A stretch of DNA of 64,000 nucleotides, taken from NCBI GenBank assembly GCA_951406725.2, contig OX597816.1, positions 40,424,001 through 40,488,000 on the forward strand, written 5' to 3'. Every line of letters begins with the position of its first letter. Position 1 is the first letter of the stretch. Under the pieces are notes generated by a model. It saw only the letters and a list, made by a program, of their open reading frames with translations, was not told where the DNA came from and ran no database searches. Position numbers and translations under genes: made by a program. This DNA comes from Octopus vulgaris. Its lineage: Eukaryota. Shown piece by piece: positions 3,165 to 58,657 of the stretch.

Positions 3165-3245
3165 CGTCTGATGAAAACGGGCTATTTACAATGATGTAAC
3201 GTTTTCATTAACCAATTATAGGAATCGTTAGAAACGGCCATAATG
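3165..3245 (+). ncRNA. Decayed minimal hammerhead ribozyme motif (PLE pLTR type)
   Basis: cgt-CTGATGA(3168-3174)-a-aacg…cgtt-a-GAAA(3231-3234)-cggcca-TA-atg. The stem I and III mismatches are CpG-type changes from ACGGCCGT/ACG. Ends about 20 bp before a (TA)n tract. Confidence 0.55.
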
Positions 3246-3349
3246 TATCTCTACTGTTACTCATGTATATATATATATATATATATATATATATATGAAA
3301 AAACAAGTCAAAAATAGAAATTGCTAAAATAATTTTATAGTGAACATTT

Positions 3350-3387
3350 CAGTACCGGTTTCGGTCATTTTGAGACCTTTTCAACTG
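3350..3387 (-). ncRNA. Minimal type-I hammerhead ribozyme (U3-A8 variant)
   Basis: Minus strand: CAG-TTGAAAA-GGTC-tcaaaat-GACC-GAAA-CCGG-TA-CTG; stems I and II pair; palindromic stem III ACCGGT. Confidence 0.8.
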
Positions 3388-3916
3388 TAACGATTAAATA
3401 ATTAAATTTAGAAAAATTAGAAGAAAAGTTTTTTTAAAGGAATATTTCTATAGTAGTGTTCAGATATAAGTGGCATTCTGCCTTTCTCTGACTCCTTTGT
3501 TTGCACTTGTGTGTTGGAGGTCGTTGTGAGTTCTTGGTAGGGTAGAAGAAGAGGAAGGCTGATGAGGAAAGGGGGTGGGAAAATCTGGGAGTGCCCTGAT
3601 GGTCGTATTTTGAATGGTCAGTGGCGGCTAGCAGTCGCAGTTCAATTCAGGAGAATATTTCTATTGAAAGGCTTCTTTATGGAATTTGCGTAAGTGTTAT
3701 ACTAAAAAACATTAGTGACAAAGTTAAGGGGTAGAAGGTGGAGAAGTAGTAGTAGAAGAAGAAGAAGAAGAAGAAGAAGAAGAAGAAGAAGAAGAAGAAG
3801 AAGAAGAAGAACTCCACCTTCTACCCCTTAACTTTGTCACTAATGTTTTTTAGTATAACACCTACGCAAATTCCATAAACAAGCCTTTCAATAGAAATAT
3901 TCTCCTGAATTGAACT

Positions 3917-4351
3917 TCAACACAGAAGCCGACAGTAAAAAAATGTGGAAGACCCAATTGCGGGATATGCGACTATCTAATTGAGGGATCAGAGTTCTCC
4001 TTCAAACAGGGACAACGGTTTACAGTGAAAAGCAACTTCACATGTGCTTCGGAGAACCTAATATACTCACTAACCTGCTCCGGGTGTCGAGAGCAGTACA
4101 TAGGCCAAACAAAAAATGGTTTGCGTTAACGAATGGCCCTGCACAGATCCCAGATAAAAATTCCCCAAAACAGAAAAATAGCTTTTAGCCAACACATAGA
4201 TACTTGCGCCAACAAAAAAACACCAAACTTCAGGATTTTCCCCCTCTACCAATTTAGGGACGATACAACCTCGAGACAACGAATAAGTAAAGAAAATCTC
4301 TTTATTGCAAAATACAGGCCACTTCTTAACGGGCCTGCGACAAACAATTAA
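3917..4351 (+). pseudogene. PLE GIY-YIG endonuclease remnant
   Basis: One frame: STQKPTVKKCGRPNCGICDYL…NFTCASENLIYSLTCSGCREQYIGQTKNGLR*RMALHRSQI…KENLFIAKYRPLLN. Single stop at 4127-4129; clearly homologous to the 43321-44250 ORF. Confidence 0.9.
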
Positions 4352-4999
4352 TATACCTCAACTTTAGAATAAAAGAAATATATACACACACAAATATTGC
4401 ATTCCATAGAATCCATTACTAATCAGCCCCATCACAGCTATACTTTCACCCATTCATATTCTCCCTTCTCTGTTTTTTTCTTCTTCTTCCTCTTCTTCTT
4501 CACCATCATCATTATCATCATCATCGTCGTCATCATCATCACCACCATCATCATCATCATCTTCTCCTTCTCCTTCTTCTTCTTCTTCTTCTTCTTCTTC
4601 TTCTTCTTCATCATCATCATCATCAACATCGTCATCTTCTTCTTCTTCTACTTCTCCACCCTCTACCCCTTAACCTTGTCACTGATGTCTTTAAGTATAA
4701 CGCCTACGCAAATTCCATATACAATTCCTGAATTGAACTGCGACTACTGGTCGCCACTGAGCATTCAAAATACGACCAACAGGGCTCCCCCAGATTTTCC
4801 CACTCCCACCCCCTCTCCACATCAGCGTCCTTCTTCTTCTCCTACCCTACCAAGAACTCACAACGACTCCGAACACACAAGTGCAAACAAGGGAGTCAGA
4901 GAAAGGCAGAATGCCACTCATATCTGAACACTACTATAGAAATATTCCTTTAAAAAAACTTTTCTTCAAATTTTTCTAAATTTAATTATTTAATCGTTA

Positions 5000-5037
5000 C
5001 AGTTGAAAAGGTCTCAAAATGACCGAAACCGGTACTG
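5000..5037 (+). ncRNA. Minimal type-I hammerhead ribozyme (U3-A8 variant)
   Basis: CAG-TTGAAAA-GGTC-tcaaaat-GACC-GAAA-CCGG-TA-CTG, in the sense 3' pLTR about 55 bp before (TA)n. Confidence 0.8.
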
Positions 5038-56119: not shown

Positions 56120-56439
56120 CATTTTATTTTTATTTATGCGCCCTATTCAAGCCTAGCCAGGTTCATGGGCCACTTCTTCCCGGTTTCTGTGGCGTATTTG
56201 TCCCTCCCAGCTGGACGGGACGCCAGTCCATCGCAGCGTTGCTCAAGAAACAGGAATAAAGAGTGAGAGAAAGTTGGGGCGAAAGAGTACAACAGGGTCG
56301 CCATCACCCCCTGCCTTAGCCTTGCGATACTTTTAGGTGTTTTCGCTCAATAAACACACGCAACGGCCGGTCTGGGAATCGAAACCGCGATCCTCCGACC
56401 GCAAGTCCGCTGCCCTAACCACTGAGCTATTGCGCCTCC
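56120..56439 (-). mobile_element. SINE family C2 with 10-bp TSD
   Basis: Homologous to 44376-44691; AGTATAATAT on both sides. Confidence 0.9.
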
Positions 56440-56757
56440 AGTATAATATAATAAAGTATAATTATGTTAAATGAATTTTATAATTCAACATAAAGCGATA
56501 GTTAAAAGAAATATAGATTTATGAGGTTCGAATATTTTCAATATTTTAAGTTGAATGCTAAATATTGTTCAATATTGTTCAAATCAAAATTGTTTCTGTT
56601 AATCGATTATCCTTAACACAACAGACCACTTATTTATATTTCATCCGTCCACCTAATTGCTTTATCACGATCCTTCTATCTGTCACTATGCAGCGATAGG
56701 AAATTTGTTAAAGCGGTATATCTTATGTTTTTTTTAAATGGTATTCAGTTGTATTAG

Positions 56758-57232
56758 AGGCGGTGGGGTGGCAGAAGTGATAATCCAGCGAGCAAAGTGC
56801 TTGGTGGCATTTCTTCCGTCTTCACGTACTAAGTTCAAGTTCCGCCGTGGTCGACTTTCATCCTTTTAAAAGAAATAAATGCGCCCTTTTAAAGCCTAGC
56901 CTGGCTCATAGGCCTGGTTTCCCGGTTTCAATGGCGTATGTGTCTTCCAGCTGGACAGGACGCCAGTCCATCGTAGCTTTACTCATTTTTGCCAGTTGAG
57001 TGGACTGGAGCAACGTGAAATGAAGTGTTTTGCTCAAGAACACCATACGTCGCCCGGTCCAGGAATCAAAACCACAATCTTACGATCATGATGCTTACAC
57101 CTTAACCACTAAGCCACTTTTTTCATCCTTTTGGCGTCGATAAAATAAGTACCAATTGAGCTCCGAGGTCCACGTAATCGACTTACTCCCTCCGCTGAAG
57201 TTGATGGATTTGTGTAAAAAATTTGAAACAAA
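56758..57232 (+). mobile_element. SINE family B interrupted by a SINE family C3 insertion
   Basis: Family B halves at 56758-56867 and 57121-57232. Confidence 0.8.
56868..57120 (-). mobile_element. tRNA-derived SINE family C3 with 12-bp TSD
   Basis: TTTCATCCTTTT duplicated (56856-56867, 57121-57132); minus head gtggcttagtggttaagg…ggttttgattcc; tail shared with C2. Confidence 0.85.
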
Positions 57233-57780
57233 TATTATTCAGTTAACTATATTTCTGATGGTTCAGTATATTCATACAGTTTAGATTTACCGGCAAGAAA
57301 GAAAAATGTAAAACCATTAAATAAAACCAATGTAGCAACTAAAAAAAAAAAAACAGAAAGAAAGACGATATATCAATATGGGTCAATAAAAAAACCAACG
57401 AAAAATATTGGAAATCAACAAACGGTTGCAAGGCTTGCCGGAAATACAATGCAAAATAAATAATTTCGAGACACACGTAATACAAACATAGTTAGAACAC
57501 CCGATAGGCGGAACACGGTTTCAAATCTTTTCTATCCTTGAATACGATATCAGTCAATATTTGTCTATGACTCTATAATGCAGGTATGAAAGCACACGTA
57601 TACACACACCACACAGACACACGTTTGCACAAACACACCACCATGCACATGCACCTAAGCACACACATTGTTCTAGAGAAACGGTGAATACATAAATAGA
57701 TGCATACATGTATATGTATATTTATCTAATATATATATATATATATATATATATATATATATATATATATATATATATAT

Positions 57781-57910
57781 AGAAAATAGTAAAAAGTGAA
57801 AAAACTACAGAAGGCTTGTTTTAAAAGGTTAAAAAATATATATTTGAGTCAATATGTCTGAAGAATGTTATAAATCGTTTACATACAATGACATAGTATA
57901 GAAGAAATGA
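57781..57910 (-). mobile_element. Terminal pLTR fragment related to the 43-kb PLE, embedded in (TA)n
   Basis: agaaaatagtaaaaagtgaaaaaactacagaaggctt…atatatttgagtcaatatgtctg matches 43010-43085. Confidence 0.8.
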
Positions 57911-58315
57911 TATATATATATATATAAACACACATACACACACGTATGCACACACATACGCACACACATATATAAATATAGGATATAATGGGTTTAGTTC
58001 ACTGGTGATCTAAACGAATAGGTACGCCGAGTAAGTGCTATAATTGATCATCCGTTATGTTCCAAGCTCACAGCTGACGCTGGAGCTAGGGATTCGTATC
58101 TGGCTTCCGTGTTAACAGGTATGTATTAGAGGAAAAGGACATCAAGACCAGAGCACGAAGAGTATCTCAAGACATTTATAATAATTTAATTGGGGTAGGG
58201 TTAATTTGAATCTATCTATCTATCTATCTATCTATCTATCTATCTATCTATCTATCTATCTATCTATCTATCTATCTATCTATCTCTCTCTCTATATATA
58301 TATATACATATATAT

Positions 58316-58657
58316 CACTGTTATCGTTCTGTTAACGTTTTGGCGTTCAAACGAGTGTACTTGCATAGATGTGGCAACATATGATATTTTGTCCAGGTAT
58401 ATGCAGCTGATGAAGACAAATCAAATCTACGTTGTCAAACGTATTTGAAGAGTCTGAAACCGGTACTGCATTATCCGATTCTAGGTTTTCCATTTTTCAG
58501 ATGTTCTTCCTAGAGGTAAAACAATTTTTTTTCAGGTTTGTTGCACACACGCGTCTTTGCTAGTATATACGCAGTGAAGCTATACAATAGCGTCGTATTT
58601 ATTACGATTGCTATTTTCCAGTAAATATCGGTGCCACGTTCTACCATTTATTTACTT
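58316..58657 (+). mobile_element. Noncoding ~340-bp hammerhead-bearing element flanked by TA microsatellite (solo pLTR or retrozyme-like)
   Basis: Bounded by TA repeats on both sides; central canonical hammerhead; no meaningful ORF. Confidence 0.7.
58401..58471 (+). ncRNA. Type-I hammerhead ribozyme with canonical core
   Basis: ATGCAG-CTGATGA-AGAC…(tcaaat/atttga and acgtt/aacgt inner helices)…GTCT-GAAA-CCGG-TA-CTGCAT; predicted cleavage after GUA at 58465. Confidence 0.88.

Follow-up and report, generated by a model that had tools for sequence, protein, structure and literature searches.

At least nine repeat families of Octopus vulgaris have minimal type I hammerhead ribozyme motifs in their 3' ends and carry the insertion marks of Penelope-like elements (PLEs), and it is very probable that these repeats were pasted into TA microsatellites by the reverse transcriptase (RT)-endonuclease of Neptune-type Penelope elements. 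We studied them in a window, a stretch of 64,000 nucleotides (nt) from assembly GCA_951406725.2 (contig OX597816.1, positions 40,424,001 to 40,488,000 of the forward strand); positions below are counted from its first letter. Families A, B and C are linked to a GIY-YIG endonuclease, and B and C also to an RT. A fixed end joins (TA)n in A, B, C and E and less regularly in D, and an alternative end lies some 30-45 nt further on in A, B, D and E. A preliminary description of the window had proposed several independent families of PLEs and their pseudo-long terminal repeats (pLTRs) that favour (TA)n, and this is borne out. What it took for one shared TA-targeting system is, however, published biology of PLEs and retrozymes and no new system.

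Hammerhead motifs in the window

Motifs were searched on both strands with our own descriptor of the minimal type I hammerhead: stem I of at least 3 Watson-Crick base pairs (bp), NYGANNA with a 3-8 pair, an optional extra A, stem II of at least 2 bp, GAAA, a perfect palindrome and UH. One hundred shuffles preserving dinucleotides in 500-nt blocks served as control. An earlier version, with palindromes of 4-8 nt, failed on families C and D and was widened after the sites had been read by eye; the widened descriptor is thus tuned to the window, and the independent test is the genome sample described below. It recovered exactly six motifs in the window, at the places of the six well-formed hammerheads of the preliminary description, whereas the shuffled windows gave a mean of 0.03 and a maximum of 1. 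The C3/U3 positions are 3384, 43177, 47082 and 50149 on the minus strand and 5003 and 58407 on the plus strand. All six have type I topology with the 3-8 pair, three as U3-A8 and three as C3-G8, and their stem III palindromes are perfect and 2-12 nt long. They stand for five insertions (A to E), since the motifs at 3350 and 5000 are two arms of one insertion. In an Rfam scan of the window no family reached its gathering score; HH9 matched below threshold at 4989, 21422 and 58389, and the microRNA matches were discarded as microsatellites.

According to the preliminary description, all well-formed motifs except the one at 50106 (family D) lie upstream of a TA tract. The distances bear this out: the predicted cleavage site is 56, 56, 104 and 191 nt from (TA)n for the four motifs other than those of B and D, and in B the first (TA)5 comes at 83 nt and the element ends at 143 nt. 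The window copy of D has no (TA)n near its cleavage site.

Abundance and orientation in the genome

The same genome was sampled systematically with 120 stretches of 10 kb at 20-Mb steps (1.2 Mb), under a slightly laxer stem III rule. This sample holds 29 motifs, against 1-4 in each of five shuffles. The density is about one motif per 45 kb, which extrapolates from these 29 to roughly 60,000 strict motifs in 2.8 Gb, in line with the dense seeding of the genome supposed earlier. About 1.3 motifs would be expected in the window, and six are present from five insertions (Poisson P about 0.01), a density about four times the sampled average, but the window had been picked for this density.

Flanks were complete for 26 of the 29 sampled motifs, three being dropped at stretch ends. 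A (TA)5 or longer tract lies within 260 nt downstream in 20 of the 26 and upstream in 11, against a background of 19% of positions. The downstream bias is real, and the supposed orientation toward (TA)n holds genome-wide, although the upstream side is enriched too. Enrichment on both sides indicates that the TA tract is the insertion target, and the orientation follows from the position of the hammerhead, 56-191 nt from a fixed 3' end that joins this target. The sample also contains further hammerhead families that are absent from the window (L154, L163, L179, L193, L196, L200, L211 and L256).

Truncated Neptune-type elements

For each of the families A to E, 29 further genome copies were examined. 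The strict motif is kept in 27 (A), 29 (B), 26 (C), 3 (D) and 17 (E) of them. Families A and B are represented in the window by the following features.

3297-5090, plus strand: family A insertion, a Neptune-type PLE that is truncated at its 5' end, has an inverted 5' arm and is flanked on either side by TA tracts
3297-3811, minus strand: inverted 5' arm of A
3812-3916: snap-back at the inversion junction of A, 105 nt with a 98% inverted match to 3639-3743
About 3914-4350: GIY-YIG remnant of A, broken by one stop, then 3' untranslated region (UTR)/pLTR ending in (TA)n
3350-3387, minus strand: A hammerhead in the inverted arm, minimal type I, U3-A8 core
5000-5037, plus strand: A hammerhead in the main 3' end, same motif, predicted to be cut after 5034, which is 56 nt away from the TA junction
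43010-44240, minus strand: family B insertion, a young 5'-truncated Neptune-type PLE whose copies are 98-99% identical
43324-44240, minus strand: open reading frame (ORF) remnant of B, a 309-codon frame with CxxxCxxC linker, GIY-YIG and CCHH
43010-43320, minus strand: pLTR of B
43145-43184, minus strand: B hammerhead, U3-A8 core, 2-bp stem II, 7-bp stem I

The marks of PLEs include an inverted 5' copy, a tail of 30-40 nt, a bias to (TA)n and the linker of Neptune and Nematis (PMC8557442). The inverted 5' copy, the optional tail and the (TA)n target are all found in A and B, and a CX2-5CxxC linker before the endonuclease together with CCHH is present in translations of A, B and C. Copies of A and B have a common 3' end that runs into (TA)n, preceded by the 30-40 nt tail in 12 of 29 copies of A and 13 of 29 of B; this tail matches the two internal RT start sites reported for a PLE system (PMC11167929). 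The protein evidence for A, with 1809 first-look candidates in the genome, consists of the endonuclease, in which one relative (L288) is 55% identical to family B (E 6e-47), and of linker and CCHH motifs read in translations. A relative of B (L095) has an open frame of 502 amino acids (aa) with RVT_1 at 30.1 bits, above the cut-off, and a weak GIY-YIG match. A relative of family B (82%) has also left a short 3' end in the window at 57781-57869, which faces a TA tract (57711-57781).

Short copies of a coding element

Family C is found in the window as a short copy.

46952-47148, minus strand: short copy of family C, corresponding to the end of the 3' UTR/pLTR in a PLE with RT and GIY-YIG
47052-47086, minus strand: C hammerhead, a C4 variant (U4 in older copies) with an extra A after A9 and a 2-nt palindrome

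This family supplies 11 of the 29 sampled motifs, two others being close variants, and BLAST found 31 pieces of it in the 1.2 Mb, which implies tens of thousands of copies genome-wide. Almost all copies (27/29) end at one point in TA, none of the 29 has the 30-40 nt tail, and an inversion was seen at one locus (L266). The copy at L313/L339 reaches, after 1.1 kb of CA-rich UTR, a decayed RT and GIY-YIG ORF on the same strand, and another locus (L330) has the end of this ORF in common. At L339 the ORF matches RVT_1 with E 1.5e-5 (below the cut-off) and is 28% identical to B over 447 aa (E 1e-43). Judged from its sequence, family C is the terminus (the last ~215 nt) of a coding PLE. A family C without a coding parent was rejected because its long copies run into this ORF. 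A circular or tandem noncoding monomer was also rejected, because a tandem is found at 1 of 29 loci, there are 16 exact head-to-tail junctions genome-wide, with variable spacers, and long copies lead into the ORF. The earlier view that some families are noncoding thus holds for D and E, whereas the element at 47052 seems noncoding yet ends a PLE with RT and GIY-YIG. Some copies of C (L112, L116, L006 and L014) lie directly inside the TA tract that ends another PLE copy, which indicates that TA tracts gather nested insertions.

The 5' ends of family C are clustered. Relative to a common 5' point, the start lies in the range -10 to +22 for 19 of the 31 sampled pieces and further in for 11. A single piece reaches more than 100 nt upstream (117 nt), and none of the 31 starts at the cleavage site (+112). 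Genome-wide, exact matches number 228 for a pattern reaching 8 nt upstream versus 1,670 for a pattern starting at +1, and 11 of 30 loci matching the former have further upstream sequence in common. The +1 site resembles an initiator, the consensus of which is TCAKTY. Penelope of Drosophila virilis has a TATA-less internal promoter, and the downstream promoter element consensus given for it (PMC2377424) has no match at C. Possibly, the clustered ends mark a transcription start, with a strong RT stop as the alternative.

We tentatively propose for C a route from an autonomous Penelope to a SINE-like (short interspersed element-like) element. Reverse transcription would have its start inside the mRNA, within the upstream pLTR, and run off the 5' end of the RNA, so that the ~215-nt copies would extend from transcription start to RT start with an uncleaved hammerhead inside. 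It is rather unlikely that the short copies instead form a separate SINE-like lineage, which would have master genes of its own and parasitise PLE proteins. Long and short copies were compared after three long loci had been dropped for short cover, which left 13 long and 18 short ones. Short copies do outnumber long ones in the sample, and C4 occurs in 12 of the 18 short copies against 4 of the 13 long ones, the other nine having U4. However, both variants are found in both forms, and mean identity is the same (0.90) within and between the two groups, which favours common masters of long and short copies.

Noncoding monomers

Families D and E contain no ORF inside their units.

49890-50175, minus strand: family D, an old (82-86%) noncoding monomer of ~357 nt; the window copy runs into other repeats
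48961-49139: second family D piece
50106-50152, minus strand: D hammerhead with a 12-nt palindromic stem III, C4 here and U4 in relatives
58315-58656, plus strand: family E, a noncoding monomer of ~429 nt, 5'-truncated here, between TA-rich tracts
58401-58471, plus strand: E hammerhead with canonical C3-G8 core, 6-bp stem I and long extended stem II

A regular expression recognises the hammerhead core in 21 of 29 D copies. Tandem periods of 330-358 nt occur at 6 of 29 D loci and inverted 5' copies at 13; in E, 10 of 29 loci have part of a further copy upstream, with a period of 427-434 nt, and 6 have an inverted 5' copy. Judged by coordinates only, a span over two motifs exists at 1 of 29 E loci (L049) and at 4 of 29 D loci (L072 and L086, which are one place, L087 and L089). 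The TA join is direct in 25 of 29 E copies and follows a tail in 2; for D these numbers are 6 and 9, 15 in all. D and E look circle-derived, and as noncoding monomers with PLE scars they resemble non-LTR retrozymes.

Other repeats surround the D pieces. A repeat at 48560-48955 on the minus strand (86% to L210) ends in a short GC-rich stretch and CTAGT beside (TA)n, which we take to recall a Helitron-type end, and its start comes after both D pieces; its GAAAC-rich sequence (48560-48950) was rejected as a hammerhead by both descriptors. Between the two D fragments, at 49628-49900 on the plus strand, lies an RT remnant (RVT_1, E 2.8e-5), probably a piece of a long interspersed element (LINE), and it was the single RT remnant found in a Pfam scan of 61 of the 82 listed ORFs of the window.

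Proposed mechanism and alternatives

In the mechanism that we propose, the PLE endonuclease would nick (TA)n, and reverse transcription would start 56-191 nt past the hammerhead, at either of two fixed internal positions. Such a start, shortly past the hammerhead at nicked (TA)n, would account for the orientation of every motif toward a TA tract. Most template RNA would be uncleaved or would have been ligated again. Cutting by the hammerheads would require a dimer joined through the palindromic stem III; it would be a side step in solo copies and may matter for circle formation in D and E. By cofolding, A, B, D and E have a minimum free energy (MFE) structure with an intermolecular stem III, which for A, B and E is a full hammerhead dimer.

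Several points weigh against this mechanism. The dimer MFE structures of C and D are not the full hammerhead fold. Cleavage is a prediction, and circles and transcripts are putative. The assignment of A, B and C to Neptune as against Nematis comes from motifs in their sequences, and D and E are presumed to draw on PLE proteins. The family loci are best-scoring matches and are therefore biased to full-length, young copies. Only the 6 D copies noted above join TA directly.

The preliminary description spoke of ribozyme-processed replication, in which dimer cleavage would yield unit-length RNAs or circles as obligatory templates in all families. This is unlikely. Most young copies of A, B, C and E have kept the motif, D and E are found as more-than-unit partial tandems, and in coral, mussel and axolotl, retrozymes are known to be processed to circles (PMC7229834); but that young copies have kept the motif is as much a matter of age as of selection. 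Moreover, the absence of C pieces starting at the cleavage site and the few C junctions with their variable spacers speak against it, as do PAc hammerhead mutants, which insert normally in vitro (PMC11167929). The claim is thus unsupported. That chance placed the motifs beside TA tracts has next to no probability, since frequent tracts and the chance-like appearance of a site at 53123 are outweighed by the excess over shuffled sequence, family-wide conservation and fixed junctions, and this explanation was ruled out for every site except 53123.

Decayed motifs and other window repeats

Four decayed motifs belong to old repeat families.

3163-3247, plus strand: decayed hammerhead-like motif of an old family (77-86%, 313 first-look candidates), palindrome broken here
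6317-6373, minus strand: decayed hammerhead of an old family, U4 changed to G, relatives L140 and L155
23952-23995, minus strand: decayed hammerhead of an old family (73-86%, 243 first-look candidates), one extra base in the palindrome
21430-21476, plus strand: decayed hammerhead (21436), absent from the preliminary description, of an old family (73-82%, 245 first-look candidates)

Other copies of the 3165, 6317, 23952 and 21436 families keep core, palindrome and stem I, and the relatives of 6317 carry an intact U4. Of about four decayed motifs listed before, those at 3165 (plus), 6317 (minus) and 23952 (minus) are therefore hammerhead-bearing repeats. The one at 53123 (minus) was rejected: the relaxed descriptor misses it, and it has no genome relative in a search that skipped very common words (its one candidate was itself). 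In most copies seen of the 3163-3247 and 6317-6373 families, which are unrelated, an unpaired A precedes GAAA, where it faces another A at the foot of stem II. Because of this base the strict descriptor misses both families, and it may be a tolerated variant.

Two further repeats were noted. Neither descriptor finds a hammerhead in a 7-kb satellite at 29787-36834 (46-nt unit, 153 copies, 93% matches). A SINE-like repeat of 184 nt, which resembles an octopus SINE, has copies at 13651-14108, 10314-10428 and 25306-25632, among them a tandem of 2.5 units.

Relation to known systems

Dimer-cleaving PLE hammerhead variants were reportedly described by Lunse et al. in 2017 (cited in PMC6765202). The motifs found here agree with the minimal PLE hammerheads in their type I topology, short stem I, palindromic stem III for dimers, U3-A8 variant and extra base after A9, and in the presence of many families per genome, mostly as solo copies of truncated PLEs. 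They differ in number, with ~60,000 extrapolated here against 2,000-9,000 reported, by different descriptors, and in the C4 variants and the A-A base of stem II, which are not among the variants that we found described. PLE hammerheads are reported to have low activity even as dimers (PMC4209133), and in the one PLE system studied in vitro, cleavage was protein-assisted and dispensable for insertion (PMC11167929).

The Neptune-type, endonuclease-bearing (EN+) PLEs (Craig et al. 2021, PMC8557442; Frangieh et al. 2024, PMC11167929) share with our families an RT with C-terminal GIY-YIG, the CX2-5CxxC linker, CCHH, 5' truncation, the inverted 5' copy, the optional 30-40 nt tail and the (TA)n bias. 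In contrast, family C has a CA-rich 3' UTR of ~1.3 kb, lacks the tail in all 29 copies and has spread mainly through its last ~215 nt, in copies whose 5' ends cluster. Metazoan non-LTR retrozymes (Cervera and De la Pena 2020, PMC7229834; Li et al., bioRxiv 10.64898/2026.07.22.740005), which are derived from pLTRs (Li et al.), are noncoding head-to-tail monomers of 150-450 nt with a type I hammerhead. D and E have this form (350-430 nt) and likewise occur beside autonomous PLEs; non-autonomous Chlamys elements such as MRC1 (PMC8557442) show the same likeness. Unlike retrozymes, D and E have minimal PLE-type hammerheads and mostly form 1-2 units rather than long arrays; their cleavage is predicted and their circles are putative.

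The overall picture is therefore known, as minimal hammerheads, dimers, (TA)n bias and tails are published for PLEs. No description of families A to E came up in a literature search on octopus or cephalopod ribozymes and non-autonomous Neptune pLTRs, whose scope did not extend to supplements and Repbase, and the main text of an octopus repeat annotation does not contain the word ribozyme. What is left as new is the clustered 5' ends of the abundant, mostly ~215-nt copies of family C.

The octopus adds another genome rich in PLE hammerheads and gives a handle on the open question of what purpose these hammerheads serve. Most copies of family C have kept the motif, yet they start ~100 nt upstream of the cleavage site and almost never form tandems, in contrast to D and E. 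If true, the route proposed for C would support internal initiation in vivo and speak against a need for cleavage. One genome here holds coding, solo and tandem families together, so that they can be compared directly.

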